From Nanobdellota archaeon (GTDB taxonomy: Archaea > Nanobdellota > Nanobdellia > Pacearchaeales > GW2011-AR1), in the NCBI GenBank assembly GCA_038045705.1, contig JBBSXO010000001.1, positions 1-64,000 of the forward strand: 64,000 nucleotides of DNA, read 5' to 3'. Every line of letters begins with the position of its first letter. The stretch's first letter is position 1. Positions 1-17,087 of this stretch are shown here, in pieces. A program made the position numbers and the translations under genes. The notes under the pieces were generated by a model that saw only the letters and a program-made list of their open reading frames with translations, searched no databases and had not been told where the DNA came from.

Positions 1-40
1 GTCGTAGTTTAGCTCAAATATAAGCTTTTTTAGTCCGTAA

Positions 41-352
41 ATGCCTCAATCACCAATATTTATTATCAAAGACTTAAAAGTTAGACGAAAAGTGTCTTTT
101 ATATTCTATTTTACCCCTTTAATATTGACTTATTTAAGCACATCTTTCATAGAAGGTAATATCCTCATAGATAATAATATTTTAGTGTGGTTTGTTACAT
201 ATCCAATGTTTTTAATTATGGGAATCCCCTTTTTATTATATACAAATGCAAGTGAAAAACAAAAGGAAAAGTTATTCTATCCTGGAGTCATATTAGCATG
301 GGCTATAGTAATAATGGTTAAAGATTTTATTAGAGAAGTTTTAGTAATATAA
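41..352 (+). CDS. hypothetical membrane protein
   Basis: 103-aa ORF with about three hydrophobic segments; no recognisable family. Confidence 0.55.
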   Translation: MPQSPIFIIKDLKVRRKVSFIFYFTPLILTYLSTSFIEGNILIDNNILVWFVTYPMFLIMGIPFLLYTNASEKQKEKLFYPGVILAWAIVIMVKDFIREVLVI

Positions 353-409: not shown

Positions 410-835
410 ATGAAAGTCATAGGATTTAGTATAGAAGAAATAACAGCTAAGAAAATAAAAGAATTCAAGCGTTATAGTATTAATACAGATATTACATTTA
501 CTAATGTAGATAAGGCAAAATTAGACGTTCTAAAAGATAACGAAGCCTTAAAATTAAACTTTAAATTTGCAGTAAATTATAAAGATGCAGAAAATAAGTC
601 TGAAGAAGTAAAAAGTGAAGTATCTATATTAGGATCAATTCTACTAATGGTTGACAAAGAGCTATCAAAAGAATTCTTAAAATTATGGAAAAACAAAGAA
701 TTACCAAAAGAAAAAATGATAAACCTCTATAATTTTATATTGAAAAAATGTTCTGTAAAAGCTCTTCAACTAGAGGAAGATTTAAATTTACAACCACATA
801 TACCATTTCCTCAAGTTAAAAATAATCAAATTTAA
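410..835 (+). CDS. conserved archaeal hypothetical protein (possible SecB-like fold)
   Basis: 141-aa ORF, TTTAAA box ~25 nt upstream; beta-rich N-half then helix and C-terminal LQPHIPFP, a pattern reminiscent of SecB-like proteins (inference). Confidence 0.6.
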   Translation: MKVIGFSIEEITAKKIKEFKRYSINTDITFTNVDKAKLDVLKDNEALKLNFKFAVNYKDAENKSEEVKSEVSILGSILLMVDKELSKEFLKLWKNKELPKEKMINLYNFILKKCSVKALQLEEDLNLQPHIPFPQVKNNQI

Positions 836-1542
836 TTTATTTTCCCAAGTTCTCCAAAATCAAAGACTTTTAAATCATCTCCTACAATATAAACTTTAAA
901 TTTCATTAAATCAAAATCCCAAGCAAATTTCATTTCGAAATCCCTAGCGTCCGTACCCTCAACAAGAGGAAAAAAACTAGGAACAATAATAATTTTTTTA
1001 GTTTTATATTCTCCATATAAAAAACACTTATATTTCTCTTTTTTAATATCATCATATAATAACACAGCAGGATGTCCGTGCCCTATTACCCAATAATTAA
1101 TATCTTTAGAATTAATTTCTTCAAATTTCTTATCTCCATGCATAAAAGCAACATCATTCCAAATAAAATAGTCATTACTAATAATCCCCATTTTTTTTAA
1201 TATTGGGAATAATACAACATCATGATTTCCTTCAATAATAATTAATTTTTTACATTTAGTCTTAACATATTCTATAAATCTAATAATATATTTCCATTCA
1301 TCTTCAAGTATAAATCCAAACTCATGTTTTATATCACCAAGAATAACAATATTATTCACTTCTCCAATATTTTTTATTATATTATCAAAATCAACAATGC
1401 ATTTTTCATATAATCTAACTGGAATCATAACTCCAGATTTTCTCATAGCACCTTCATATCCTAAATGTAAATCTCCTATTGCAAGAGTTTTCTCACTATT
1501 TTCAGTTAGGAGTAAACACTTACCTACAAAATCAACTTTCAT
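832..1542 (-). CDS. metallophosphoesterase (Lhr-associated MPE / ICC-like)
   Basis: Motifs DLHLG, GDIKH, GNHD, HGD, GHGHP; overlaps the stop of the upstream Lhr helicase, a known Lhr-MPE pairing. Confidence 0.9.
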   Translation of the reverse strand: MKVDFVGKCLLLTENSEKTLAIGDLHLGYEGAMRKSGVMIPVRLYEKCIVDFDNIIKNIGEVNNIVILGDIKHEFGFILEDEWKYIIRFIEYVKTKCKKLIIIEGNHDVVLFPILKKMGIISNDYFIWNDVAFMHGDKKFEEINSKDINYWVIGHGHPAVLLYDDIKKEKYKCFLYGEYKTKKIIIVPSFFPLVEGTDARDFEMKFAWDFDLMKFKVYIVGDDLKVFDFGELGKIN

Positions 1543-4124
1543 CTTTTTTCAATAATCCTCATCTGTAATTCATGCATTCTTTTCAAGAAGTTAATCCTAT
1601 CTTCAACTTTAATAAAATCAGCATGACTTTGAGTAAGTAAAATTAAACCAAAGGGAGAAACCATTGGAGTTCTAATAATCTCAAAATTTATTTCTTTTCT
1701 TTCTATTTTCTTTAATATTTCTTCAGCATGGCCAATATCCATTAAGTCCTTCATAACTTCACGTCTTGCTTCTCTCAATATAGGAAAATCCTTGCTTAGC
1801 TCATTAACCGCACTCAATAAAAAGTGAGAGTGAACTTGTTGTTTTCCAACACTCTTACTTCTTCCCTTATAATTTCTCAAGATCATTAAACTTCTAGCAG
1901 CGCAATGTCTAAATCTTCTTCGAAGAATATCTGTCTTATTTATTGCTTCTTCCAATATATTCCTTAAATTAGTACTAGTCAAACCCTTTAATATCTTGTT
2001 AACATCAAGAGACTCACCAGCTAAAAAGAAACCATTGTCATTTATTCCAATTTCAATATCTCTATGTTTCAACTGAGCTGCAACATAAGCATACGATCTG
2101 GATAAAGCATCATTTACTCTACGCCCATAAAGAGAATGGAATAAAATATATTCTTTATCTTGCTTAAATTGTTCAATAACTAATTTTTTATCTGTTGGTA
2201 GTTGCGAGAAATCTCTCTGTTCAAGACAATATCTATATATCTGTCCGGCAGATTCTGCAGAACAATAAACATAATCTTTAATGAATTTAACACATTCAAT
2301 GGAATTACTTAATCGTTCATTAATAAGACCTCTAAATTTACCTATTGCAGCTGCAAGGTCATAACTCAAAGGCAACTGTTCAGAAAACCAGCTAGGAATA
2401 GTAGGAGATCTACTAACATTAGCATTAACATAAGCCTTCATACCCTTACTATGTATAAATTGATATTTCGCTCCTCCAAGAACAAAAACATCTCCTTTCT
2501 TCATCTTTTCAAGAAATGCTTCATCAATACTTCCGACTACTGCTCCCTTAGATTCGCCCGAGCTAATTACTACAGAGATAAATCCTTCTTCAGGTATAGT
2601 TCCTATATTCGTTAAGTAAATTAATCTAGCAAGCTTTCCTTTTTTACCAACCTGTTTAGTTGAAGTATCATACCATATCTTTGCATAAACATTTCTATGT
2701 TCCAAATCATAATCTCCAGATAAATAACTAATAATGCTCATAAAATCTTCTTTACTCAATGTAGAATAACAATAACTCTTTCTTATCAACGCAAGCATTT
2801 CATCAATATTCCAAATTCTAGCAATAGCCATCCCATAAATATGTTGGGCTAAAACATCCAAAGCATTTATTGGAATGTCTACTCTATCAATTATTTTCTC
2901 CTTCATGTGCTTCATTAATACAGCACACTCAACAAGATCATCTCTATCCATAACTACAAATCTACCCTTAGGGTTAGAATGTAACTGATGACCCGCTCTT
3001 CCTATTCTTTGCAGTGCCCTAGAAACACTCTTAGGAGATCTCAATAAAATTACTAAATCAATAGAACCAATATCTATTCCAAGTTCTAAACTAGTGCTTG
3101 AAACTGCAACTTTCAAGTCTCCTTTTCTAAGTCTTTCTTCAATCATAAATCTCTGATCTTTACTCATAGAACTGTGATGTGCTCCTATCAATCCAGAATA
3201 TTTTCCAGGAAAATGATCGTCTAAATAATGAATAATTCTTTCAGTAGCATTACGGGTATTTGTAAATATAAGTGTAGTCTTGTGATTCTGAATTAATTCA
3301 TCAAGGATCTGATAAAGTCTTTTTTGATCTTCAGCTCCATCCATTGTAAGCAAATCGACTCCCGGGCTAATCAGACCAATATCAATATCTTTTACAAGTT
3401 CTACTTTAGCAATCAAACATTCTCTTTCAGTTCCAACTAAAAATTTAGCAATTTCTTCAATTGGAGCTATTGTAGCACTCAACCCAATCCTTACAGGAGT
3501 TATTACACTAAAATCTTGAAGTCTTTCAAGTATCAAACTCAAGAAAACTCCTCTCTTATTTGCAAGAGCATGAATTTCATCAACAACTACAAACTCTAAT
3601 GATCTCAAATTCTCTGAAAATTTAGGTGCAGTAAGCACAATTGCTAAACTTTCAGGTGTAGTCACAAAAATATGAGGTACTTTACGAACCATTTTAGCCC
3701 TTTCGGAGACTGTAGTATCTCCAGTACGTAACCCAACCCGAATGGGTTGCATTTTCAAACCATTCTTCTCAGCCAATTCATTAATTTCAGCAAGAGGCCT
3801 CTCAAGATTAAAATAAATATCATTAGACAATGCTTTTAGAGGACTCACATATACTGCATACATTTTATCTTCTAATTCATTTTTTAATGAAAGTCCAACT
3901 AAATAGTTCAAAATACTCAAAAAAGCAGTCAATGTCTTAGTTCCACCAGTAGGTGCAGAAATTAGAATATTCTTGCGTTCATGAATCGGAGCAACTCCAT
4001 ATAACTGAGTAAGACTAAAATCTTTAAATTTAGTAAAAAACCATTCTCTCACTACAGGGTGTAGCATTTCTTTTACATCTGCACTTTCTCGTGCTTCAAT
4101 AAACTCTATTTTATTTTTAGCCAT
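1539..4124 (-). CDS. lhr: Lhr-family ATP-dependent SF2 helicase
   Basis: 861 aa; SPLKAL, RTGDT, TTPESL, DEIH, SAT, HHSS, STSLELGIDIG, QRIGRAGH; C-terminal DEAD-associated region. Confidence 0.93.
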   Translation of the reverse strand: MAKNKIEFIEARESADVKEMLHPVVREWFFTKFKDFSLTQLYGVAPIHERKNILISAPTGGTKTLTAFLSILNYLVGLSLKNELEDKMYAVYVSPLKALSNDIYFNLERPLAEINELAEKNGLKMQPIRVGLRTGDTTVSERAKMVRKVPHIFVTTPESLAIVLTAPKFSENLRSLEFVVVDEIHALANKRGVFLSLILERLQDFSVITPVRIGLSATIAPIEEIAKFLVGTERECLIAKVELVKDIDIGLISPGVDLLTMDGAEDQKRLYQILDELIQNHKTTLIFTNTRNATERIIHYLDDHFPGKYSGLIGAHHSSMSKDQRFMIEERLRKGDLKVAVSSTSLELGIDIGSIDLVILLRSPKSVSRALQRIGRAGHQLHSNPKGRFVVMDRDDLVECAVLMKHMKEKIIDRVDIPINALDVLAQHIYGMAIARIWNIDEMLALIRKSYCYSTLSKEDFMSIISYLSGDYDLEHRNVYAKIWYDTSTKQVGKKGKLARLIYLTNIGTIPEEGFISVVISSGESKGAVVGSIDEAFLEKMKKGDVFVLGGAKYQFIHSKGMKAYVNANVSRSPTIPSWFSEQLPLSYDLAAAIGKFRGLINERLSNSIECVKFIKDYVYCSAESAGQIYRYCLEQRDFSQLPTDKKLVIEQFKQDKEYILFHSLYGRRVNDALSRSYAYVAAQLKHRDIEIGINDNGFFLAGESLDVNKILKGLTSTNLRNILEEAINKTDILRRRFRHCAARSLMILRNYKGRSKSVGKQQVHSHFLLSAVNELSKDFPILREARREVMKDLMDIGHAEEILKKIERKEINFEIIRTPMVSPFGLILLTQSHADFIKVEDRINFLKRMHELQMRIIEKR

Positions 4125-4174
4125 AAAAGTAGTATTCTAAGCCCCAACTTAAACTATAAAAACATTGGCTATCA

Positions 4175-4453
4175 ATGAGTGATATGCCTGCAATTTCTAA
4201 AAAGAAGCGTTCAAAAATCTCAGAACAAATACTTTCATATCTTTATAGCATATCTCCAGAGGCTAGCTTCACAGTAAGAATTGCAGAAGAAATAATTAGA
4301 GATGAAGAATTCACAAAATCTTTACTCGAAGAACTAGAAAAAAGCAAGCTTCTAGTCAAAGTAAGTAAGGGTCCAGACGGCCAAAACTATTCTAGATGGC
4401 AACGCTGGCGTCTATCTAATGCAGCCTTTGAAGCCTATAAGAAATTGAATTAA
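4175..4453 (+). CDS. small winged-helix DNA-binding protein
   Basis: 92 aa; helix-helix-helix-wing pattern (EQILSYL...IAEEIIRDEEFTKSLLEELEKSKLLVKV...RWRLS). Confidence 0.65.
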   Translation: MSDMPAISKKKRSKISEQILSYLYSISPEASFTVRIAEEIIRDEEFTKSLLEELEKSKLLVKVSKGPDGQNYSRWQRWRLSNAAFEAYKKLN

Positions 4454-4600
4454 AGTTTAAATCTTCTTCTAACTTGTAAGTCTGGTTTTGTTTTCTAAGT
4501 ATTCTATACGTAATTTCAGCACCCAAAGTAGTTAAAAAATAATTATAATAATCAATTCTAGAACATAAAACCTTATATTCTAATTAAATATCAAAATAAC

Positions 4601-5248
4601 ATGTCTGATCCTTTAAAAGAAGCATTCTCAAAAGTACGTCAAGATATAGATTTCTTATATCAAGAATTAGCAGAGATAAAATATCTATTGGAAGAAATAA
4701 AATATCAACAATCAAACCAACCAACAAACCAACAGATAAATCCAACACACAAAGAACCATCTCCAACACAAGACTTACCCTTAAAAGCCATAATAACCGA
4801 AAAAACAAGCTTTTCCACTGGAAACGAAGGGGTTCCAACAAACCAACCAACAAACCAACCAACAAACCAACACCCCCTTATTTCCACTCCAAGTTCGTTT
4901 AATGACTCAATAAGTAACCTTAGACGAGTTTCAGAAATACTAGGAACACTCGACGATTTAAAGAAAGAAGTTCGTTTAAAATTCAAGAGACTTACAGAAC
5001 AAGAGATGCTAATCTACAGCACAATATATCAATTAGAAGATTCTGGTTTTACTGTAGACTATGCTATTTTAGCTCAAAAAACAGGTCTTACTGAAATCTC
5101 AATTAGAGATTACATAAGAAAAATCCTCCAAAAAGATGCACCCTTGATAAAATCGAAGGAATCGAATAAGAAAGTTATTCTTTCTATCCCTCAAGATTTG
5201 AAAAGAATCGCGTCGATAAATACTATAACTCAATTAAGAAACTTATAA
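4601..5248 (+). CDS. coiled-coil / repeat linker / C-terminal winged-helix protein
   Basis: N-terminal LKEAFSKVRQDI coil, (PTNQ)n linker, C-terminal LTEQEMLIYSTI...YAILAQKTGLTEISIRDYIRKI wHTH. Confidence 0.75.
   Translation: MSDPLKEAFSKVRQDIDFLYQELAEIKYLLEEIKYQQSNQPTNQQINPTHKEPSPTQDLPLKAIITEKTSFSTGNEGVPTNQPTNQPTNQHPLISTPSSFNDSISNLRRVSEILGTLDDLKKEVRLKFKRLTEQEMLIYSTIYQLEDSGFTVDYAILAQKTGLTEISIRDYIRKILQKDAPLIKSKESNKKVILSIPQDLKRIASINTITQLRNL
4721..4870 (+). repeat. 12-bp repeat CCAACAAACCAA inside the wHTH gene
   Basis: Perfect copies at 4721-4732, 4835-4846, 4847-4858, 4859-4870; partial copy at ~4712-4720. Confidence 0.9.
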
Positions 5249-5464
5249 ATTCGTCATACCGAATAAACTTGCAGTTCTCACTAAATGTGGTAAAAAGCCC
5301 TAATAACCTTATTTTTTGCACTTTTAAGGCCTAATAACTCTTTTGAGTTTTCACACTCTCTTTTACCAAATCAGACCAAATGCACTCCACACGGCAAAAA
5401 GCCCTCATCTTTGTCTCACTTTTAATTTTTTGATTTTGAATATTCATTTTCCCTCACTTTTTAT

Positions 5465-6106
5465 TCAAATTATGCTATCTTTAGGTAATTTCTTATATTT
5501 TTTATCATTTTTAACTCTCACTTTTGCATATTTCTCTAGTTTGTTACGAACTTCTTCACTCACAAACAGTCTTTTCTTTCCATTAGGTTCGGTTAACTCT
5601 TGTATTAAACCCTCACTTTTCTGTTTTATTGTATTTATTTGACCCCTAATTGTAGCCCTCTCTTTTCCTAAAAGTCTAGCAATATCTTCATAACTTAGCT
5701 TTAATTCTGTGTTCATCAACGTAAAAACAATAACTCTTTCATTACTGCTCAATCCATTCAAAATATCATGAAAATTGCCTGTTTGAACAGGTGTTTGAAC
5801 AGGTTCAACAACATCATAAACAGCCTCCTGTTTATCCAAAACAGCTGTTTTTTTAAACACCTGTTTATTTTCAACAGCCAAATTTGTAAGTGAAACAGCT
5901 TCCTTCAATCCATCAACATCATCTTTTATCGACGATAGTTCTATTTTAAGATCATTTACTAAATCAAACAGCTGTTTATCGCTGTTGTTCAGGTGTTTAA
6001 TCCACTTACTAACGCCTTCAAAGTCTTTTCGAACTTCAGAAAAACTCTTTTTTGTCTCACTTTCAAGCTTCTTCACTTTCTTCGAATTTCCAAACAACCC
6101 AAACAT
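5465..6106 (-). CDS. coiled-coil / C-terminal winged-helix protein (probable paralog of 4601-5248)
   Basis: KKSFSEVRKDF N-terminal motif and LSSNERVIVFTL...YEDIARLLGKERATIRGQINTI wHTH; same architecture as the convergent gene. Confidence 0.75.
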   Translation of the reverse strand: MFGLFGNSKKVKKLESETKKSFSEVRKDFEGVSKWIKHLNNSDKQLFDLVNDLKIELSSIKDDVDGLKEAVSLTNLAVENKQVFKKTAVLDKQEAVYDVVEPVQTPVQTGNFHDILNGLSSNERVIVFTLMNTELKLSYEDIARLLGKERATIRGQINTIKQKSEGLIQELTEPNGKKRLFVSEEVRNKLEKYAKVRVKNDKKYKKLPKDSII

Positions 6107-6776
6107 ATCATTTTATAGACGTATACACTATATAAATGTTGTGCATTTAAGTAACAAAAATAAACAGACTTAAACAGCCTTAAACACTATATAAACACCC
6201 CTCATTCAAAAACAAACAGGTGTTTAAACACCCACCAACACCTGTTTGACTTTTTACACACTTAAACACCCCTAACAAAAAACACCAGAAAACCTATAAA
6301 AAATGGATTAAAAAGGTAAAACTATTTAAACAGCCTCTGTGTCTATAAAATATCTTTAAAGAGAGGTGAAAGGAGGTCAAATGAACGCACTAAGCTGGAT
6401 CACAAAAATTCTTGTAATCGTTGGAGCCATTAACTGGGGTTTAATGGGAGCATTCGATTGGAATCTTGTTTCCGCAATATTTGGAACAGGAACATTCGCT
6501 ATGATCATATATATCCTAATAGGATTATCAGGATTGTGGGAATTAATTGCTTTATTCAAGAAGTAATTAAAAACAAGTTTTTTCTTTCCATTTTTCTTTT
6601 TCTTTCTTTAAAATCAAAAAATCAATGCAACCACCACGCTAAAGTGTGTGGTTTTAGGAGACATAATAAACACCTATTTAAACAGGTCTTATCGAAGATA
6701 AACAGGTGTTTAAAACACCCGTTCAAACAAGCCGGTTGTAAATATTAAACAACTTAACTTATATAACTGTTTAATC
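5778..6776. repeat. dense array of (T)AAACA[G/C] motifs and AAACASSTGTTT (near-)palindromes
   Basis: TGTTTGAACAGG x2 (5780-5803), AAAACAGCTGTTTT (5838-5851), TAAACACCTGTTTA (5854-5867), CAAACAGCTGTTTA (5965-5978), phased TAAACA at 6161/6171/6181/6192, CAAACAGGTGTTTAAACACCC (6213-6233), TAAACAGGTGTTTA (6699-6712) and others. Confidence 0.85.
6381..6566 (+). CDS. DUF378 family small membrane protein
   Basis: LVIVGAINWGLMGAFDWNLV...IYILIGLSG signature; AGGAGGT Shine-Dalgarno at 6371-6377 supports the ATG at 6381. Confidence 0.88.
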   Translation: MNALSWITKILVIVGAINWGLMGAFDWNLVSAIFGTGTFAMIIYILIGLSGLWELIALFKK

Positions 6777-6827
6777 TACCTATATCATGGCTTTAACATT
6801 TAAATATACATTAATATTTAGTAAGTT

Positions 6828-7118
6828 ATGAAATCAGAGATTATTGAGAAACTTTCCATTCTTTCAACAGGTGCATTTGGTCTTGTGGCCGCGTTGGCAT
6901 GGAACGAAGCAATCCAAGGTATTTTCAAACAAGTTTTTGGAGAGCAAAGTTCAATCCCTGCAATGTTCTCATATGCTCTTCTAGTCACAGCAGTAGCAGT
7001 AATAGTCACAATTTGGACTGGTCGAATTGCAGAGAAAGCAAAAAACGCAGAGTTAAGAAGCATCTTCAGAAGAAAAAAAGAGGCACAAGAAGCAACAAAA
7101 CAAGAATCAAAAAAGTAA
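6828..7118 (+). CDS. DUF5654-like membrane protein
   Basis: AFGLVAALAWNEAI...YALLVTAVAV motif. Confidence 0.75.
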   Translation: MKSEIIEKLSILSTGAFGLVAALAWNEAIQGIFKQVFGEQSSIPAMFSYALLVTAVAVIVTIWTGRIAEKAKNAELRSIFRRKKEAQEATKQESKK

Positions 7119-7120
7119 AC

Positions 7121-7175
7121 TAAACTTCTAATCAAAACTTAAATATTTCAGTTAGGCATAAAACTTCGTTTAATT
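7121..7175 (+). repeat. 55-bp inter-gene site, copy A
   Basis: taaacttctaa-tcaaaa-cttaaa-tatttcag-N12-cttcgtttaatt. Confidence 0.7.
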
Positions 7176-7220
7176 CATCAAAACCAATAAGTACTTAAAC
7201 TAGAGAGCATTCATCTAAAT

Positions 7221-7385
7221 ATGGTTTCACTTGTATTAACATTATCAGCAATCATGGCAATAATTGTAGGAATCTTAGTTCTTGTGTTTCCAAAATTCCT
7301 CAGAGTAGCAGTAGGTCTATACCTCTTAATCTTCGGAGTTCTTCAATTCCTAAACATTAATTTCAACCTTTCTCCTTTAGGTTAA
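7221..7385 (+). CDS. DUF3096-like small membrane protein (not in ORF track)
   Basis: Manual translation MVSLVLTLSAIMAIIVGILVLVFPKFLRVAVGLYLLIFGVLQFLNINFNLSPLG (54 aa); TTAAA box upstream. Confidence 0.75.
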   Translation: MVSLVLTLSAIMAIIVGILVLVFPKFLRVAVGLYLLIFGVLQFLNINFNLSPLG

Positions 7386-7917: not shown

Positions 7918-8124
7918 ATGGAAAATCAACAAATAACTCTTGAAGAAATGCATAAAATTCTCTTATATTTAAAGGCAAAAATGCAAAAAATGGATCATTA
8001 TATAGAAGATTTAGAATTTGCAAGACTTACACAAGAAGCATGGCAAGAAATTGAGACTGGGAAGTATACTAAGTATAATTCCTCAGAGGATTTTTTAGCA
8101 ACATTAAAAGAGAAATATGCCTAA
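7918..8124 (+). CDS. putative antitoxin (RelB-like)
   Basis: 68 aa, acidic C-half (QEAWQEIETGKY...EDFL); overlaps the start of a RelE-like gene. Confidence 0.7.
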   Translation: MENQQITLEEMHKILLYLKAKMQKMDHYIEDLEFARLTQEAWQEIETGKYTKYNSSEDFLATLKEKYA

Positions 8125-8362
8125 AATAAATGAAACAGATGCATTCAAAAGAGCAAAAATTAAGTTAGATGGGAGTTATTTAATAAGACTTGAAAAATTA
8201 ATTAGAAAGATTATTGAAAATCCAAATATTGGTAAACCTGTGCAATATGAACGCAAAGGGACAAGAGAATTATATCTTCCACCACTTAGAGTTTCTTATG
8301 CATATGACCTGATGACAGACACATTAACATTACTTACTATTTATCATAAAGACGATCAATAA
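8117..8362 (+). CDS. RelE/ParE family toxin
   Basis: KIIENPNIGKP...TRELY...RVSY...IYHKD pattern. Confidence 0.8.
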   Translation: MPKINETDAFKRAKIKLDGSYLIRLEKLIRKIIENPNIGKPVQYERKGTRELYLPPLRVSYAYDLMTDTLTLLTIYHKDDQ

Positions 8363-8369
8363 TATAAAC

Positions 8370-8424
8370 CCAACTTTTAATTATCGCTTAAATCTTCCAG
8401 CACATATCAAATATTCGTTTAATC
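8370..8424 (+). repeat. 55-bp inter-gene site, copy C
   Basis: ccaacttttaa-ttatcg-cttaaa-tcttccag-N12-attcgtttaatc. Confidence 0.7.
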
Positions 8425-8455
8425 CATCGGTGTTTTCAATACCTAAAAATAATTG

Positions 8456-8497
8456 CCTCGGTAAGAGTGAGGCGCGAAGCGCCGAACTGCGCAGACC
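8456..8497 (+). repeat. 42-bp GC-rich hairpin element, copy 2
   Basis: cctcggtaagagtgaggcgcgaagcgccgaactgcgcagacc; two mismatches to copy 1. Confidence 0.85.
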
Positions 8498-8530
8498 GTA
8501 AGTTTAAAAATAGAGCAAAATCATTAAATT

Positions 8531-8944
8531 ATGGAAAGACCTAGGAGAATTGGAATGGATGGATACATATCCGAAGAAAATAATAGGTTTAGACCATCCG
8601 TAAGATTTCAGACTAATTTAAATAGAACAACTAAGGATATAGCTTCATTAGTAGCTCGACCGTTAGGCTTTTTTATTCCAGGGCGTTACTACATAAGCGG
8701 TCCATATAATAGAGAAGCAAATCATGCAGAAATTTATGAAGAGAGTATATTTACACAAGGACGTGCTGTTCTCGAGGTCGTTAGTAAGATCGATTATGAA
8801 AGCAAAGTTATAGAACATGTTATATCAACTGGTCAAAGTAATCCCAAAGATATTAGCCTGAAAGATTTAAGAGAACTTCTAAGAAGATCATTTAGGCATA
8901 AAAGATTATTTCCTAAAAACCATCCAAAAATTAGGACTTATTGA
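8531..8944 (+). CDS. hypothetical protein
   Basis: 137-aa ORF with TTTAAAAA box upstream; no recognisable motif. Confidence 0.6.
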   Translation: MERPRRIGMDGYISEENNRFRPSVRFQTNLNRTTKDIASLVARPLGFFIPGRYYISGPYNREANHAEIYEESIFTQGRAVLEVVSKIDYESKVIEHVISTGQSNPKDISLKDLRELLRRSFRHKRLFPKNHPKIRTY

Positions 8945-9015
8945 CTCAAATTAATGGTTTCTAGCAACAGTTCGTACATCCAAAGGTTTAAAAACCACTT
9001 CTTAGTAGCAAACTT

Positions 9016-9357
9016 ATGACAAGAGACCTTACATTAACAGTAACAAACTGCTACAAAAGAGGAAATCTAGTGAGGACTTCATTTTATGCAAATGATATTG
9101 GATTTGATTGTAAGACTATTCCAGAATTAGCACAAGACTTAAGGTCAAATTATCCAAAACTTGTAGGAGCAGATTCTACCTATCGCAACGCTCGTCAAGA
9201 AGACTGCGAGATAATAATCTCTGAACCTGGAGAAGTTCTTATAGACAGACCATTTACTCAATCCGAGCTTGAATTATTTGCACAAGAACTGTCTAAACCA
9301 AAAGAAATGTCCAAACCTCGAAGAACAGGTAGAATACCTTTTCCTCCTCAAGACTAG
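9016..9357 (+). CDS. hypothetical protein
   Basis: 113-aa ORF with TTTAAAAA box upstream. Confidence 0.6.
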   Translation: MTRDLTLTVTNCYKRGNLVRTSFYANDIGFDCKTIPELAQDLRSNYPKLVGADSTYRNARQEDCEIIISEPGEVLIDRPFTQSELELFAQELSKPKEMSKPRRTGRIPFPPQD

Positions 9358-9429
9358 ATTTTAGTGTAAATAGCAAACGTTCGCACAACCTTTATTAACA
9401 CGTCTTTTGGGGTCCCTAAAAGCCACTTT

Positions 9430-9603
9430 TTAGTCAATTTTCTGCTTTTTTCGTAAAGTTAAGGTATTATCATTAGAAATTGCTTCCAATTCATCCCCTT
9501 CTTTGAATTTACATTGATCCATGATAACTGAGGGGATATTAATTTTATACTTATAGTATTCTTGATTTTTGTAAGTTCGAGACTTCTCTTTTAAGATTTT
9601 CAT
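9430..9603 (-). CDS. AbrB/MazE/SpoVT-like DNA-binding protein
   Basis: YYKYKINIPSVIMDQCKFKEGDELE swapped-hairpin pattern; ATG at 9603 chosen. Confidence 0.7.
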   Translation of the reverse strand: MKILKEKSRTYKNQEYYKYKINIPSVIMDQCKFKEGDELEAISNDNTLTLRKKQKID

Positions 9604-9655
9604 ATCTTTCAAAATGTAATCAAGTATTTAAATTTTTAGAGACCGAAATTGTTTT

Positions 9656-10069
9656 TTAATGTAAAATCTCTAGGGCTCTTTTTCGGCCACCTAGTATGTT
9701 AAATGGTTTATCAGAGAATTCTATTGTTCCCCCTACATTTTCAAGAAGGTAATCTATTACTGTTTCATTCCCTCTGTATCTTTTTACTCTCCCTCTTAAT
9801 GTTGCCTTTTGTAGTGGAATTCCCTGTGGTCCAATATATAATCTAAAATTATGATAATAACCTCCATTACCTGAATAGACTCGTTGACCCTCATACCCTT
9901 TATCTCCTCGATAATCTTCTCCAGCTTCAGGAGTAGGAGCAAAAACCACAAAAAATAAAGGACTCTCCCTTTCTTCTTCAATAGTTTTTGCTAAGTGTTC
10001 TAATTTATAATTTGCAGGAATATCTTCAAATACCAATTCCTTTCCATCCTTTAATATTAAATTTGTCAT
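9656..10069 (-). CDS. hypothetical protein
   Basis: 137-aa ORF; no recognisable motif. Confidence 0.6.
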   Translation of the reverse strand: MTNLILKDGKELVFEDIPANYKLEHLAKTIEEERESPLFFVVFAPTPEAGEDYRGDKGYEGQRVYSGNGGYYHNFRLYIGPQGIPLQKATLRGRVKRYRGNETVIDYLLENVGGTIEFSDKPFNILGGRKRALEILH

Positions 10070-10116
10070 TGTTTTTTGTAATTTTTAAGCCTATTTAACC
10101 CTTTCTTTTTGAAAAT

Positions 10117-10171
10117 CTAAGTTTTAAGCAACGCCTAAAAATTCTAGCTAACAGAAGAGGTTCGTATTAAT
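10117..10171 (+). repeat. 55-bp inter-gene site, copy D
   Basis: ctaagttttaa-gcaacg-cctaaa-aattctag-N12-gttcgtattaat. Confidence 0.6.
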
Positions 10172-10782
10172 TACTGATTTTCCCTTAATTTCTTACTTAT
10201 ATTTCCTAACTCTTCATAAACCCTTTCACTTAGTGATGCTACTTCTTCTAAAAACTTAGAATTATATACTAATCTTGAATATTCTACTCCGAAGTCTAGT
10301 AATCTTTGTAACTCTTGTATTTCTTTCAGCTCTCCTGTCGAAACAGTGACTCCTCCGGTGTCTTTCCCTGTTAGCACTTCTAAACTATGTTTTTTAGCCA
10401 AGTCTTTTGCAAGTTGTCCTCGTAATATAGCATCAAGGCAAATTAGTTTACTTATCGGATGTATCAAATTTAGACCTGGAAACAGCATTTCTGGATCTTC
10501 AACCACTCCAAGACTTACATAACCAAGATAATCATCTCCCTTAGAGCTAGAATCAAGAAACAAATTTAATTTTCCCTTCCCCTTATCAAAAATCTTAAAT
10601 AGGGGAATTGATGGAAATGTCCTGCTCGTTGCCCTTCCAAAAGCAGATTCTCTTTCATCAAGGGGAGTATATGTTCGCGGAATTGCATACACGTTAAATC
10701 TTAAGACATCCCAGGCTCCTAAATCTTCTACAAAAGGTTGCGAAAGAAGGTATGCTCTAGCTTTCTCAAAGTTTAAATCCAT
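10171..10782 (-). CDS. hypothetical protein
   Basis: ~203-aa ORF, ATG at 10782 with TTTAAA box upstream. Confidence 0.6.
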   Translation of the reverse strand: MDLNFEKARAYLLSQPFVEDLGAWDVLRFNVYAIPRTYTPLDERESAFGRATSRTFPSIPLFKIFDKGKGKLNLFLDSSSKGDDYLGYVSLGVVEDPEMLFPGLNLIHPISKLICLDAILRGQLAKDLAKKHSLEVLTGKDTGGVTVSTGELKEIQELQRLLDFGVEYSRLVYNSKFLEEVASLSERVYEELGNISKKLRENQ

Positions 10783-10853
10783 ACTGAACAAATTTATCTA
10801 TTGATATTTAAACCTTTTCTTTTAGTAACTATCTAGTAGTTATCTCGCACAAT

Positions 10854-10980
10854 CAAATATTCAATCATCGCTTAAAACTTCCAGCAAATAGGGAAAGGCA
10901 TAAACGAGTTCGTTTTATCCTTGCTTGATATTTCAGCTTATGACCTAATCTTTCAGCATAGCTAAGAAGTTCGGTTAAAC
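10854..10980 (+). repeat. two tandem inter-gene sites, copies E (10854-10919, 23-nt spacer) and F (10926-10980)
   Basis: caaatattcaa-tcatcg-cttaaa-acttccag-N23-gttcgttttatc; tgatatttcag-cttatg-acctaa-tctttcag-N12-gttcggttaaac. Confidence 0.6.
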
Positions 10981-11044
10981 CATTAAAATGGTAAAAGTAT
11001 TGTTTAATGGAAAAATATATAAACTATGGAATTACATTAGTTTT

Positions 11045-11302
11045 ATGGAAAAGATAGTTAGTTTTGATAAGCAGGGTAGACTGTATTTACCCGAAGAATT
11101 AAGAAAAAAACTACATTTTAAGATGTTTTTAGCTAAACTTCAAGGAAAAGGAGTTTTCTTAGAGCCTCTAGAAAGTGATCCGATAGAAGCTCTCGCAATA
11201 TTGGGAAGAGAAAAGTTGAAGCACAAGTCTATCGAGCAGCTCAAAAAAGAAGCGAGAGGAGAAATAGAGGAAAATGCACTCAAAAAAGTACGCAGACACT
11301 GA
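11045..11302 (+). CDS. AbrB/MazE-type antitoxin (VapB-like)
   Basis: DKQGRLYLPEELRKKL motif; overlaps a downstream PIN gene; ATG at 11045 chosen. Confidence 0.8.
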   Translation: MEKIVSFDKQGRLYLPEELRKKLHFKMFLAKLQGKGVFLEPLESDPIEALAILGREKLKHKSIEQLKKEARGEIEENALKKVRRH

Positions 11303-11654
11303 TTTTTTTCTTGCTTTAATGAAAGATTTTGATTGGTTAAAAGCAAATGCTAAAAAAATTTACGAATTTAACAAAGATAATATTTTTGTCACTTCTTTTA
11401 CAATAGTAGAGATAATGATTGTGTGTAAAAGAGAAAATATCTCAATAAAAGATACTTTAATTCAAATATCCAGAATTTCCAAATTAGAAAGTTTATCATG
11501 GGATATATTTTTTAAAGCTTGTAGTTTTATAGAAAAAGGTGCAACAATTTTTGACAGTTTATTGATGGCTTCTTGTAATTCTGAAGATCAAATAATAGGT
11601 TCAGACAATATTTATCAAAAATTTGGTTTTAATGTTATTGATCTAAAGAAGTAA
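11274..11654 (+). CDS. PIN-domain toxin (VapC family)
   Basis: YADTDFFLAL...E...FDSLLMA...IIGSD acidic PIN residues. Confidence 0.85.
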   Translation: MHSKKYADTDFFLALMKDFDWLKANAKKIYEFNKDNIFVTSFTIVEIMIVCKRENISIKDTLIQISRISKLESLSWDIFFKACSFIEKGATIFDSLLMASCNSEDQIIGSDNIYQKFGFNVIDLKK

Positions 11655-11733
11655 ATCTCTATTTTTTTACATATTTTCATGTGTATGAATTTGTGTGAGG
11701 AAAATTTAATTACTTAATTTGCCTTAATAAAAA

Positions 11734-11970
11734 ATGCAATCAGATAGTTATTTTAGTGATGAAAAAATCAAGCATATCTTACACAAATACAAAGAAATGT
11801 TTGCTGTTCTTGAGCAATATGATAAAACTCGCGAATGGCCTATTGGAAGAGCTAGATTAGATATTACTCTAAGCAGAAAGACTATTCTGAAATTAAAAAA
11901 ATTAAAGGAGAAAACAGGCAAGCCCATTTCACATATAATCGAAGAAGCTCTTAATATTTTAAACAAGTAG
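11734..11970 (+). CDS. ribbon-helix-helix (CopG-like) protein
   Basis: RLDITLSRKTILKLKKLKEKTGKPISHIIEEAL RHH pattern. Confidence 0.75.
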   Translation: MQSDSYFSDEKIKHILHKYKEMFAVLEQYDKTREWPIGRARLDITLSRKTILKLKKLKEKTGKPISHIIEEALNILNK

Positions 11971-12004
11971 AAAGCCTTAAATATCATTATGTATCATTAT
12001 CTTT

Positions 12005-12274
12005 ATGCAAAAAGAAATAAAAGCAATAACTCGGAAATGGGGAAATTCAATAGCTATAGTTATACCTAACGAGTTTGCAAATAAGGAAAATATTAAAGAA
12101 AATATTGAAGTAAAAATTACTATAGAGAAAACTCGTCCAAAAGCAGGAGTGTTATGGGGATTTGGAAAAGGAAAATTCAAAAGATCGACAGAAGAAACTA
12201 TTAAAGAGGTGAAAGCAGGGTGGTTAAGTGCTTCTGATCGAGAAAGAGAGGCAAAGTGGAAGAATCAGAAATAG
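12005..12274 (+). CDS. AbrB/MazE antitoxin
   Basis: RKWGNSIAIVIP motif; overlaps a PIN gene. Confidence 0.88.
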   Translation: MQKEIKAITRKWGNSIAIVIPNEFANKENIKENIEVKITIEKTRPKAGVLWGFGKGKFKRSTEETIKEVKAGWLSASDREREAKWKNQK

Positions 12275-12636
12275 AATATTTTTTTGATACTTATGCAATT
12301 ATAGAAATTCTTAATTCCAATCCGAATTATAAGAAATATGTTGATAAGCCTGCAGTAATAACTATTTTCAATTTGGCAGAGATTTATTATTTTTGTTTGG
12401 ATAATTTTGATGAAGACGAATTAGAAGAAATATATTCAAAATATAAGGATGCTGTTGTGGATATCGAAGATGAAACTTTAAAAAAGGCAATAAAATTCAG
12501 AAAAGAACATAAGAAAAAGGACATTTCATATACGGATGCAATAGGCTACATTTATGCTAAAGAGCATGGAATGAAATTCTTAACTGGAGATAAAGCTTTT
12601 GAAGGAATGGCCGGCGTAGAGTATGTTAAGAAATAA
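12256..12636 (+). CDS. PIN-domain toxin (VapC family)
   Basis: FFDTYAIIE...EI...SYTDAIGY...LTGDKAF. Confidence 0.88.
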   Translation: MEESEIEYFFDTYAIIEILNSNPNYKKYVDKPAVITIFNLAEIYYFCLDNFDEDELEEIYSKYKDAVVDIEDETLKKAIKFRKEHKKKDISYTDAIGYIYAKEHGMKFLTGDKAFEGMAGVEYVKK

Positions 12637-12654
12637 TTTTATCCTATTTTGATT

Positions 12655-12745
12655 ATCTTGCATAAATACAAAGAAATGTTTGCGGCTCTTGAGCAATATG
12701 ATAAAACTCGCGAATGGCCTATTGGGAGAACAAGACTTGATATTA
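12655..12745 (+). pseudogene. partial duplicate of the RHH gene 11734-11970
   Basis: 91-bp near-identical copy of 11776-11866 (ILHKYKEMFAxLEQYDKTREWPIGRxRLDI), lacking start and C-terminus. Confidence 0.85.
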
Positions 12746-12790
12746 GTTTAATCATAAAATTTAAATACTATAGCGAGTTATATAATCAAT

Positions 12791-13018
12791 ATGGCTCAAA
12801 CAACTATTCAAATAAGCAGAGAACTCCTTGAAAAACTAAAACAAAGAAAAATCAGTGAGAAAGAAAGCTATGAAGATGTAATTTGGGATTTGATGGAAGA
12901 TACAATGGAGTTATCTGAAGAAACAAAAAGATCAATAGAAGATGGAAGAAAACAGATAAAAGAGGGAAAAGTGCACAGTTGGGAAGATATCAAAAAGCGC
13001 TTGTCTTTAGATGTATAG
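12791..13018 (+). CDS. putative antitoxin
   Basis: TTIQISRELLEKLK...ESYEDVIWDL N-terminus and acidic C-terminus; overlaps a RelE gene. Confidence 0.8.
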   Translation: MAQTTIQISRELLEKLKQRKISEKESYEDVIWDLMEDTMELSEETKRSIEDGRKQIKEGKVHSWEDIKKRLSLDV

Positions 13019-13262
13019 TATAAAATTTTCAGACAAGGCATTAAGATTCTTTGAAAAATTAGATAAAAATATTCAAGATAGGATTGGTTCAGTATTAGAA
13101 AGAATTAAGATTCGTCCACAAGACTTTATTGAGAAACTTGTCGGAGAGCAAGGGTACAAGCTTAGGGCAGGAGATTATAGATTATTCTCAGATATAATAG
13201 AAAACCAACTTCTTATTTTTATTATAGAAATCAATCATAGAAAAAATGCTTATAAAAAATAA
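13011..13262 (+). CDS. RelE/StbE family toxin
   Basis: YSIKFSDKALRF...YKLRAGDYRL...HRKNAY. Confidence 0.88.
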   Translation: MYSIKFSDKALRFFEKLDKNIQDRIGSVLERIKIRPQDFIEKLVGEQGYKLRAGDYRLFSDIIENQLLIFIIEINHRKNAYKK

Positions 13263-16262: not shown

Positions 16263-17087
16263 TTATAAATTTTGTGTAAGGCGATCTAATGGATTTATTA
16301 TTTTCTTTAACTGTTCACTGGAAACATGAGTATAAATTTCTGTCGTGTTTAAATTTGTATGGCCTAGCAATTTTTGAATCATTCTAATATCTGTTCCTGA
16401 CTCAAGTAAATGTGTAGCAAAACTATGCCTCAATGTATGAGGAGTAACTTTTTTTTGAATATCTGCTCGGTTTCTAAGATTTTTAACTATCTTCTGAACA
16501 TTTCTTGTTGTAAGCGGATCTTCTTGTGAAAAAAGATATTTTGTACCCTCTCTTTTTTTGAGATATTCATTTAATTCACCAGCAAGAGCAGGAGATAAAG
16601 TAAACATTCTGTCTTTACCGCCTTTTCCAGATCTAACCCAACCAGTATTTTCAGAAAAATTTATATCACTAGGTTTTAAGTTTACAAGTTCAGAAACTCG
16701 AAGTCCTGATGAATATAGCAAAGATAAAATCAATCTCGATTTTCTAGTTTCAGCAGACTTCAATAACTTAGAGACTTCATCTCTAGTTAAAACCTCTGGA
16801 AGTTTTTTATCTTTTTTAGGCATTTTTATATCTCCAACTTCTTTTTTTAGAACCTCTGTAAAGAAAAATTTAAGTGAAGCAGCTGCCAACATTATAGTAT
16901 TCTTAGACTTTTCATCAAACATTCCTGCTAAGTATGTCCTCACATCTTCTTGAGTTAAACTTTCAACAGGTTTGTTTGCACTCTTCAGAAATTTATCTAC
17001 AAAAAATGAATAGTTTCTAACAGTTAATGGGGAAAATCCTCTAAGTTTTAATTCTGTATGTAATTTTACTAAAGCGTCTATCATCAT
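16263..17087 (-). CDS. xerA: XerA-like tyrosine recombinase
   Basis: N-terminal SAM-like domain; catalytic R (GLRVSE), K (GKGGKDR), HTLRHSFATH, LGH, Y (TTEIYT). Confidence 0.88.
   Translation of the reverse strand: MMIDALVKLHTELKLRGFSPLTVRNYSFFVDKFLKSANKPVESLTQEDVRTYLAGMFDEKSKNTIMLAAASLKFFFTEVLKKEVGDIKMPKKDKKLPEVLTRDEVSKLLKSAETRKSRLILSLLYSSGLRVSELVNLKPSDINFSENTGWVRSGKGGKDRMFTLSPALAGELNEYLKKREGTKYLFSQEDPLTTRNVQKIVKNLRNRADIQKKVTPHTLRHSFATHLLESGTDIRMIQKLLGHTNLNTTEIYTHVSSEQLKKIINPLDRLTQNL

Follow-up and report, generated by a model that had tools for sequence, protein, structure and literature searches.

In the archaeal chromosome analysed here, a dense array of the short motif AAACAS and of the palindrome AAACASSTGTTT runs through and beside one gene of a conserved three-gene module. 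Our tentatively preferred explanation, to which we give a substantial share of the probability but less than half, is that this array is a conserved docking platform with a single address on the chromosome for PC, the protein that is encoded through the array. Because the array and the gene trio are conserved beside the replication origin in most relatives, the locus looks like an origin-side docking platform and not like an origin. In the following, the window is the whole stretch of 64,000 nucleotides that was analysed; it belongs to contig C1 of a genome (G000) of 844,273 bp. The genes of the module and its neighbour are as follows.

4175-4453, + strand: PA, first gene of the trio, an ORF for a putative small wHTH protein (92 aa)
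4601-5248, + strand: PB, a protein with coiled coil, disordered linker and wHTH (215 aa), distant paralogue of PC
5465-6106, - strand: PC, an ORF convergent with PB (213 aa), presumed binder of the array
6129-6136, - strand: candidate TATA box of PC, TTTATATA, 23-30 nt before the ATG, as read from the sequence
6381-6566, + strand: gene for a DUF378 small membrane protein (Pfam PF04070, E 5.6e-19), divergent from PC

The array consists of three parts.

5779-5999, unstranded: in-gene array, 12 AAACAS half-sites, which include 3 perfect palindromes, in PC codons 36-109
6162-6334, unstranded: upstream array, 11 half-sites, with palindromes at 6214-6232
6668-6773, unstranded: distal cluster beyond DUF378, 6 half-sites, with one palindrome that is perfect and one that has 1 mismatch

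AAACAS was counted on both strands. The window contains 115 matches, 31 of which lie within 5501-7000, and every other 500-bp bin has at most 3. In the genome as a whole there are 1,284 matches (1.52 per kb). Among 1-kb windows, the one at C1:5751 has the highest density in the genome with 28 matches, as compared with 8 in the best window outside the locus, and the Poisson probability of this peak is about 1e-25. The perfect palindrome occurs five times in the window (5839, 5855, 5966, 6214 and 6700), where 0.02 are expected from 100 shuffles, and nowhere else in the 844-kb genome; when up to one mismatch is allowed, 21 palindromes are found in the genome, 8 of them at the locus. Four direct AAACAS copies start at 6162, 6172, 6182 and 6193, 10-11 bp apart. 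The sequence-only reading had described at least 20 AAACA[G/C] motifs at 5778-6776, many of them palindromic and four of them helically phased, at a density unmatched in the window. All of this is borne out by the counts, with 29 matches between 5779 and 6767. The layout that it described was likewise found: the array begins inside PC, passes through the promoter, is interrupted by the DUF378 gene and resumes in the distal cluster. The in-gene array covers the end of the PC helix and the linker. The distal cluster was not seen in the locus of the closest relative (L007) or in L011, and therefore it is probably specific to the lineage of G000.

In PC, an N-terminal motif of the MFxWLFGKK type precedes a long helix, and a disordered linker joins this helix to the wHTH. 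In the AF2 model, these correspond to residues 5-84 (helix), 85-111 (disordered) and 112-193 (wHTH, pLDDT about 90), and the wHTH has the fold of Lrs14/Sta1/MarR-type regulators. Foldseek with this model gave MepR, MarR, AbfR2 and CadC at E values of 1e-4 to 1e-3, that is, a generic MarR/ArsR/Lrs14-type wHTH. PC scored 22.7 bits against the Sta1 family model (cut-off 80) and 14.7 bits against that of Lrs14 (cut-off 90), and every Pfam HTH match of PC was under its cut-off. The PDB profile search gave the Lrs14-like 6cmv at E 0.013; the rest was coiled-coil noise and chance-level matches, and the PolD small subunit appeared in this search at chance level (E 0.14-0.19). The AF2 model of PB comprises helix 4-38, a disordered segment 39-100, helix 101-129 and wHTH 133-214. 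Among 28 PB orthologues, HTH_11 matched 19, HTH_36 17 and DnaD_N 15, all weakly. The N-termini of PB and PC (KEAFSKVRQDI and KKSFSEVRKDF) are similar, as had been noticed from the sequence. PA had an EarA-like Pfam match that was weak and under the cut-off (E 0.0056). Thus, of the three wHTH genes proposed at first, PB and PC have this fold in their AF2 models and PA is only weakly wHTH-like.

PC is present in 87 of 101 genomes of the family, each genome representing one genus. There is one full-length copy per genome, and a second, weak match occurs in 3 genomes. A search of 1.84 billion representative proteins gave 154 clusters at E<=1e-10, and in the ESM Atlas only Nanobdellota clusters were found. 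PB and PC are adjacent and convergent in 19/19 loci. A PA homologue is next to PB in 16 of these, and the remaining 3 loci end before showing PA. The order PA>PB><PC is kept across genera, and so is the motif array; thus, the synteny check that was proposed together with the original claim gave a positive result. At a distance of 2-10 kb from the module there are toxin-antitoxin genes and an integrase.

In each of the 19 relatives' loci, which come from different genera, the array keeps the same position with respect to the start of PC. In the relative G002 it is also unique, with an AAACAS peak of 15 per kb versus 1.6 per kb. Across 20 family loci, the spacings of upstream sites in the same orientation peak at 10-12, 21-22, 31-33 and 42-43 bp, a periodicity of about 10.6 bp; such short repeats, in helical phase and ahead of the gene of the presumed binder, are also a feature of systems of the ParR/parC, TubR/tubC and omega type. 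Inside PC, the codons at the motif columns are biased: Leu is CTG in 9/12 and 7/7 cases (background 4%), Val is GTG in 8/8 (background 8%) and Gln is CAG in 16/17 and 10/11 (background 27%), although the genomes are related, so that codon probabilities overstate independence. In VQT-x-VQT, x is P, A or G among the orthologues, yet the codon is SST in 19/19. The rare codons and the free P/A/G exchanges indicate that selection acts on the DNA itself, and the in-gene array is, as judged from codon usage, kept by DNA-level selection. The selected stretch falls in the PC linker, which is predicted to be disordered by AF2. It is hardly credible that the DNA motif exists only because selection maintains a peptide repeat (KQxF, VQT-x-VQT). 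Although these repeats are conserved in the alignment, the noncoding upstream region is full of the same motif and the rare codons are preferred just where a palindrome gets completed; the constant SST codon at a varying residue and the predicted disorder also count against this explanation.

The recognition helix of PC changes together with the motif. Helices of the type ST[ILV]RGQxNxIK pair with AAACA half-sites, those of the type VTVRRHxNDIK pair with CGTTCATGAACG or TGAACGCGTTCA, and NTVKNHLCHIK pairs with CGCCCATGGGCG; in all three lineages the sites are within linker-coding DNA. In the aligned orthologues, the array motif co-varies with the recognition helix across lineages, and in distant orthologues different palindromes occupy the same layout. 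In the most distant ones, little or nothing of the upstream array is left, and the in-gene palindromes alone remain. From these sequences we infer that PC binds the array. PB and PA are alternative candidate binders.

A rival explanation is plain autoregulation, in which PC (or PB or PA) would use the sites only as operators and the proximity to the origin would be historical. The upstream sites would tune the promoters of PC and of the divergent membrane-protein gene, and the in-gene sites would be an elongation roadblock. We regard this as somewhat unlikely. In its favour, the sites lie to either side of the TATA-box candidates in front of PC and DUF378, the wHTH is of the generic MarR/Lrs14 type, a partner motor gene is not linked, and the retention of in-gene palindromes alone in distant orthologues fits a plain roadblock autoregulator. 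However, about 25-30 phased sites over 600 bp, which constrain the codons of PC, far exceed the need of known autoregulators. Because the genome has no further palindromes, there is no regulon, and because the genes upstream of PC differ between relatives, PC itself would be the sole constant target. Furthermore, autoregulation leaves unexplained the fixed side and strand of the module relative to orc1 across four families.

The position relative to orc1 is as follows. G000 has a canonical orc1/cdc6 gene with ORB boxes on contig C4, and beside orc1, at C4:52514, the AT content over 200 bp is 92.5%, which is the genome maximum. The synteny of relatives puts C4 next to the window start. The ends of C4 and C1 both stop in 55-bp sequences that are common to 2-3 other contig ends; because these repeats are multi-copy, the adjacency of C4 and C1 is given by synteny only. 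In 53 of the 87 genomes orc1 shares the contig of PC, 2.3-12.5 kb away, on the 3' side of PC in 53/53 and on the same strand in 52/53, and in 31/87 it is on a different contig. Three other families show the same linkage, in 6 genomes and at distances of 5.4-14.9 kb. Owing to insertions of Lhr and other genes, the interval that separates the DUE from the module ranges between about 2.5 kb and more than 12 kb.

The array itself is not an unwinding site. In 4001-7300 there is no AT-rich unwinding element; the maximum is 77.5% AT over 200 bp, and the 99th percentile of the genome is 78%. Therefore, the array is no origin. GC skew, which had been suggested as a check, gave no origin signal: within the window it tracks gene strand, and on the 511-kb contig of G002 the minimum of the cumulative GC skew is at about 215-250 kb versus 312 kb for the locus. 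Thus, GC skew is uninformative for the origin position. It is very improbable that the locus is an independent second origin of the iteron type, or that it is a plasmid or virus which became integrated together with its Rep protein and iterons. Phased direct repeats beside and inside the gene of a DNA-binding protein, the analogy with lambda O and ori-lambda, and the toxin-antitoxin genes and integrase nearby would agree with it, whereas the AT maximum at the array stands against 92.5% at the orc1 origin, and Pfam and family-model searches found no Rep-family domain in the module. Since both an AT-rich unwinding element and a Rep-like initiator are missing, an independent iteron-type origin is unlikely. 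PC is also a single-copy core gene in 87/101 genera with conserved chromosomal synteny, relatives of PC were not found in plasmid and phage collections, and an integrated element was likewise rejected.

The DNA of PB carries an element that may connect the module with Orc1.

4811-4836, + strand: canonical ORB in PB linker-coding DNA, TTTTCCACTGGAAACGAAGGGGTTCC, encoding FSTGNEGVP
4837-4870, + strand: 12-nt tandem repeats, CCAACAAACCAA, encoding PTNQ x3, between two ORB-like boxes
4871-4892, - strand: second, inverted ORB-like box in PB, TTGGAGTGGAAATAAGGGGGTG, which matches the G-string pattern and is weaker than the first

The pattern TTCCA-N2-GGAAA-N3-5-GGGG has a single match in the 844-kb genome, and this is the ORB in PB. 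The long form of the ORB includes a G-string; here it is GAAGGGGTT at 4826-4834, a few bases 3' of the dyad, and N3-GGGGTT is kept in 20/20 loci. The dyad core itself (TTCCA-N2-TGGAAA, with invariant TTCC and GAA) is present as TTTTCCACTGGAAAC at 4811-4825, TTCC and GAA being the ORB core motifs given in the part of PMC1904270 that deals with these boxes. The same ORB was found in PB of 20/20 relatives' loci, where its codons (TCC, GGA, GGG) are invariant and the spacer codon is free. The consensus also occurs beside orc1 in three loci (L032, L036 and L044), and inverted boxes flank the AT-rich DUE in 4/4 loci read. Thus, in relatives the PB box lies near orc1/cdc6 and has a consensus in common with the DUE-flanking boxes; in G000 this holds via synteny only. 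In many relatives, (ACAG)n encoding TDRQ repeats replaces the 12-nt repeats, and the second box is frequently a direct repeat and not inverted. Given its sequence, the PB box would be bound by Orc1. In so far as the original proposal was of an origin that does without canonical ORB boxes, it is contradicted by these results, since orc1/cdc6 and ORBs are on C4 and the best ORB of the genome is inside PB.

These boxes raise another explanation, that the locus is a replication-control element of an extended oriC in which the PC array and the PB ORB influence initiation. Orc1 might be titrated or positioned by them, or they might define where the origin ends or link the expression of PB and PC to initiator occupancy, analogous to outlying initiator-box clusters. 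We consider this rather unlikely. It gains from the best ORB of the genome being in PB, 1 kb from the array, from the same consensus flanking the AT-rich DUE beside orc1 in relatives, and from the weak matches of PB orthologues to the DnaD_N and HTH_36 wHTH models. In contrast, the intergenic region next to orc1 shows no enrichment of AAACAS, and the DUE distance is variable. A precedent, which counts for this explanation and for the docking platform alike, exists in Pyrococcus/Thermococcus, where an intragenic ORB/mini-ORB cluster in dp1 (PolD small subunit), beside cdc6/orc1, is bound by Cdc6/Orc1, as described in the sections on this cluster in Matsunaga et al. 2007 (PMC1904270). As far as those sections describe it, the dp1 cluster is similar to our locus in that initiator boxes are within a coding gene a few kb from oriC/orc1, in order-wide conservation, and in being a second cluster besides the oriC boxes. 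The differences are that the host gene PB encodes a DNA-binding protein with the box in its disordered linker, that the Orc1 binding here is putative, and that the paralogue PC carries a second, non-ORB array matching its own recognition helix.

In the docking-platform reading that we prefer, PC would bind cooperatively as a dimer, both at the 12-bp palindromes and at the half-sites in helical phase, and would coat about 600 bp, from -300 to +350 of the PC gene. A nucleoprotein complex would thus form a few kb from oriC, as one unit with PA and PB, and would be an origin-flanking chromosome organiser or handle with a centromere-like role. The conserved hydrophobic-basic N-terminus of PC and its coiled coil might provide a tether, and docking would inevitably entail autoregulation of PC. 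Of the original proposal of a replication-initiation or segregation module, an independent origin is unlikely, whereas the linkage to the origin across genera holds and a centromere-like or origin-accessory role is the best reading. We infer a role of the module in segregation or chromosome organisation. NTPase motor genes linked to the module were not found among the trio and its neighbours, in the window and in 20 relatives' loci; the two ParA/MinD-like genes of G000 (C9:25300 and C3:135005) and its one ParB_N ORF (C5:79082) are unlinked to it. A more specific version is that the module is a previously unrecognised chromosomal centromere or origin tether of this group of DPANN archaea, in which a PC polymer on the array of about 600 bp would be anchored or bridged by MFxWLFGKK and the coiled coil, with Orc1 on the ORB of PB; this version is possible but doubtful.

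Several known systems resemble this arrangement. ParR/parC of plasmid R1, TubR/tubC of pBtoxis and the omega heptads of pSM19035 are centromeres of short phased repeats with small dimeric binders. Our locus has in common with them direct and inverted short sites at 10-12-bp spacing upstream of the gene of the binder, and, if the putative binding holds, cooperative binding on one helix face and the union of autoregulation and centromere in one element. It differs in being chromosomal and archaeal, in lacking a motor gene for ParM, TubZ or ParA next to it, in that half of the array is within coding sequence, and in that PC is a coiled-coil and wHTH protein without specific similarity to those binders. 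In the ParB/parS system, parS sites are near bacterial oriC, also inside the parB (spo0J) gene. Origin-near palindromes, partly in the gene of the binder and at a single chromosome address, are common to both; however, many sites are in one 1-kb cluster here versus few dispersed ones, a linked ParA gene is absent, PC has no ParB_N (CTPase) domain, and HTH_ParB matched only 2 of 19 orthologues, weakly. The iterons of ori-lambda are inside the lambda O gene, so that the sites are within the binder's own coding sequence, as they would be for PC. In contrast to lambda, our array has no adjacent AT-rich unwinding region, PC is outside the initiator families, and a canonical origin of the Orc1/ORB type is present close by on the host chromosome. 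For SegAB, we know of no origin linkage and of no sites in its own coding sequence. SegAB of Sulfolobus includes a protein that binds DNA at specific sites and has been proposed to arrange the chromosome for its segregation, according to the relevant part of a review (PMC7617429), and PC would be similar as an archaeal site-specific DNA-binding protein with a proposed segregation role. The comparison with Rep and SegB that had been suggested found no Rep domain, and no SegB chain was among the PDB profile matches of PC at E<=1; the module has no SegA-type ATPase gene.

To our knowledge, nothing is known of origin organisation or segregation in DPANN, and titles and abstracts of the literature on DPANN/Pacearchaeota replication origins, ORBs and Orc1 gave no paper on this module. 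Archaeal segregation in general is largely open according to the part of the review that covers it (PMC7617429). The module is a concrete candidate for DPANN: its core gene is single-copy, its address of about 600 bp is unique, its position beside oriC is fixed, and a neighbouring gene has an Orc1 box. If the centromere or tether version holds, the cis sites are within linker-coding DNA of the complex's own proteins, so that recombination could not split the site from the binder, and the two would co-evolve lineage by lineage. The locus is also a clean natural case of dual-use DNA, in which selection for protein binding to the DNA shapes a disordered linker and the motif and recognition helix change together. 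In practice, the PB box and the array are markers for locating oriC in fragmented DPANN assemblies.

The genome G000 comprises 844 kb in 10 contigs (91% complete, 31-32% GC); the window covers the initial 64 kb of its contig C1. The window is chromosomal because ribosomal-protein and RNA-polymerase genes are present. The gene trio is as follows.

4175-4453, plus strand: PA, an ORF of 92 aa
4601-5248, plus strand: PB, an ORF of 215 aa
5465-6106, minus strand: PC, an ORF of 213 aa, convergent with PB

The alignment-based AF2 model of PC shows a long helix (5-84), which a disordered linker (85-111) joins to a confident winged helix-turn-helix (wHTH; 112-193). In that of PB, a helix (4-38) and a disordered linker (39-100) precede another helix (101-129) and a wHTH (133-214). 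The wHTH of PC resembles MarR/ArsR/Lrs14 generically and reached no curated family cut-off in family-model searches. The wHTH resemblance of PA is weak.

We counted AAACAS on both strands. Among the 115 sites in the window, 31 lie within 5501-7000, and every other 500-bp bin holds three or fewer. The densest 1-kb window of the genome (C1:5751) has 28 sites, as compared with 1.52 per kb genome-wide and 8 in the best window beyond the locus (Poisson probability of the peak, ~1e-25). Thus, the sequence-only observation of a motif density seen nowhere else in the window is confirmed. Perfect AAACASSTGTTT palindromes occur five times in the genome, all at the PC locus (shuffles predict 0.02 for the window); when up to one mismatch is allowed, 8 of 21 are located there. 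The half-site consensus is approximately (T/A)T-AAACA-S-(C/S)-(T/C).

PC was found in 87 of 101 family genomes, each from a different genus, and in 20 of the 21 of high quality. Each carrier has one full-length copy (43-72% identity); G001, G091 and G096 each have an extra weak match (E 2e-4 to 8e-4). In all 19 relatives' loci analysed, the motif is crowded into a stretch of ~750 bp at the PC 5' end, and PB is convergent to PC. In 16 of these loci, PA follows on the far side of PB; the remaining three stop too early to show it. Counted from the PC start codon, the sites concentrate at -300 to -50 and +100 to +350. Same-orientation spacings upstream of PC peak at 10-12, 21-22, 31-33 and 42-43 bp. 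Therefore, the upstream sites face one side of the helix. The four phased copies in the window have their starts at 6162, 6172, 6182 and 6193. In-gene spacings peak at multiples of three (12, 21, 33 and 45 bp). The PC family is small and DPANN-restricted; among 1.84 billion representatives, E<=1e-3 gives 422 clusters and E<=1e-10 gives 154. The Atlas neighbours of PC are Nanobdellota clusters without names.

The in-gene sites coincide with DNA coding for the disordered linker of PC in the AF2 model. Codon choice at these sites is biased as follows.

Codons at motif columns of PC (codon alignment; the rows are related genomes, and nominal probabilities exaggerate their independence)
KQLF Leu column: CTG 9/12 (background 4% of Leu codons)
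NKQ(V/L)F Leu: CTG 7/7 (background 4% of Leu codons)
NKQ(V/L)F Val: GTG 8/8 (background 8% of Val codons)
Gln, two motif columns: CAG 16/17 and 10/11 (background 27% of Gln codons)

In VQT-x-VQT, x is P (6), A (7) or G (6), yet its codon is CCT, GCT or GGT in 19/19; therefore, AAACA-SST-GTT is preserved. This pattern, opposite to that expected from protein-level selection, indicates that the in-gene copies are selected as DNA. Because the codons run contrary to protein-level selection, the idea that the array is a by-product of a peptide repeat is scarcely credible.

Orthologues outside the family retain the layout with a changed motif.

Helix ST[ILV]RGQxNxIK: in-gene half-sites of the AAACA type, such as GTCCAAACA and AAACAGCTGTTT (loci L056, L057, L059, L061, L064)
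Helix VTVRRHxNDIK: in-gene CGTTCATGAACG or TGAACGCGTTCA (L068, L070, L071)
Helix NTVKNHLCHIK: in-gene CGCCCATGGGCG (L074)

The in-gene sites of all these loci lie at ~+230 to +340, in linker-coding DNA. This co-variation of recognition helix and motif, seen in few lineages, points to PC as the putative binder of the array. A PC bound upstream of and within its own gene might be engaged in plain autoregulation with a roadblock, which we consider rather unlikely as the whole explanation. The N-terminal M-x-F-x-[WF]-[LIF]-F-x-KK of PC is retained across families; contact with a membrane or partner through this motif is speculation.

The orc1/cdc6 gene of the genome is located at C4:50083-52340 (minus strand). 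ORB-like boxes upstream of it surround the 200 bp with the highest AT content in the whole genome (C4:52514, 92.5% AT; next-best contig maximum, 85%). Thus, a canonical origin exists on C4, and the suggestion of a replication-initiation module not based on canonical ORB boxes is not supported. The proposal of a replication-initiation site at the array fails also: AT in 4.0-7.3 kb reaches only 77.5% per 200 bp, an unremarkable value in this genome, so that no unwinding-type stretch is found there; domain searches of the module gave no Rep-like domain; and the plasmid and phage collections searched contain no relatives of PC. These three results rule out the array as an origin itself and make an independent iteron origin or integrated element very improbable. 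AAACAS is not enriched beside orc1.

The orc1/cdc6 frame has 777 aa, versus ~405-420 aa in relatives, and its HMM match is in two pieces ~1 kb apart (G069 is alike, with 767 aa). An intein or other insertion may be present.

In relatives, the order is orc1 < [inverted ORBs + AT-rich DUE] > small PRC-like gene > o410 > PA > PB < PC [array], with an optional insert, < Metallophos < Lhr, after o410. C4 ends with the small gene, and C1 starts with o41/o410, Metallophos and Lhr. By this synteny, we infer that the C4 end and the C1 start adjoin, which would place PC ~6.5 kb from orc1 plus the gap. Both of these contig ends terminate in 55-bp sequences common to other contig ends: the C1 start (window 1-55) matches the end of C6, the start of C7 and the end of C9, and the C4 end matches the start of C2 and the end of C3. 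A multi-copy element breaks the assembly exactly between the origin and the module. The gene o410 (window 410-835) matches no Pfam family at E<=0.01; together with the small gene (C4:52861-53120), it separates oriC from PA in the loci of most relatives. Lhr helicase and Metallophos (window 832-4124; L040-L045) lie there in part of the family only, and their insertion extends the origin-to-array distance from ~2.5 kb to 6-12 kb.

PC and orc1 share a contig in 53 of the 87 genomes, 2.3-12.5 kb apart, with orc1 at the 3' side of PC in 53/53 and on the same strand in 52/53. In 31 genomes orc1 is on a different contig, often <=1 kb from the contig start, and in three no orc1 match was obtained. Six genomes of other families (f23, f36 and f40), in which the match spans most of PC, have the same arrangement (5.4-14.9 kb). 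The orc1 search of G251 gave nothing above cut-off; in G213, G273 and G144, which gave partial matches only, these lie away from orc1. Another reading of the array, and an unlikely one, is that it belongs to an extended oriC as a replication-control element.

Two boxes lie within PB.

4811-4836, plus strand: ORB in linker-coding DNA, TTTTCCACTGGAAACGAAGGGGTTCC, encoding FSTGNEGVP
4871-4892, inverted: second ORB-like box

TTCCA-N2-GGAAA-N3-5-GGGG has a single match in the 844-kb genome and a single match in the 511-kb contig of G002, both within PB. TATTTCCAYWGGAAAT-N3-GGGGTTCCAACAG is found in PB of 20/20 further loci; the rare TCC and GGG codons are invariant, and the N3 codon varies freely, encoding E, R, Q, G, K, D or N. 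L032, L036 and L044 also have the consensus in the intergenic region next to orc1, and in 4/4 loci read the DUE lies between inverted boxes of this type. Between the two PB boxes are 12-nt repeats; many relatives have (ACAG)n encoding TDRQ repeats instead. One relative only (L037:5244, G054) has an additional ORB-like box, TTTTTCCATTGGAAATGCTGGGGC, in the array region upstream of PC. An ORB/mini-ORB cluster within dp1, adjoining cdc6/orc1 of Thermococcales, is bound by Cdc6/Orc1 in vivo and in vitro (PMC1904270); this is a precedent for the intragenic ORB in PB.

Just past the module (window 7918-13262) is a run of small toxin-antitoxin-like pairs: ParE-like; PIN/VapC with MazE/AbrB-like partners; and VapB-like with ParE. 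A tyrosine recombinase (window 16263-17087; Phage_integrase, E 9e-47) adjoins the ribosomal-protein/RNA-polymerase operon and may be a XerA-type chromosome resolvase rather than a sign of a mobile element. C5 and C6 have 35% GC, versus 31-33% for other contigs, and could represent a separate replicon or reflect a binning problem; C5 carries the sole ParB_N-domain ORF (79082-79303).

This ORF and two ParA/MinD-like genes are elsewhere in the genome; no motor gene linked to the module was found, which counts against a centromere. The literature searched contained no publication on the module. The dp1 cluster, ParR/parC-type centromeres, parS in parB and lambda O/ori each match only parts of it. 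Tentatively, and at a little less than an even chance, we propose that PC would assemble cooperatively on a single origin-flanking DNA address. The complex would act as a platform with a centromere-like or organising role, functionally coupled to the PB ORB, and autoregulation of PC would be a by-product of this platform.
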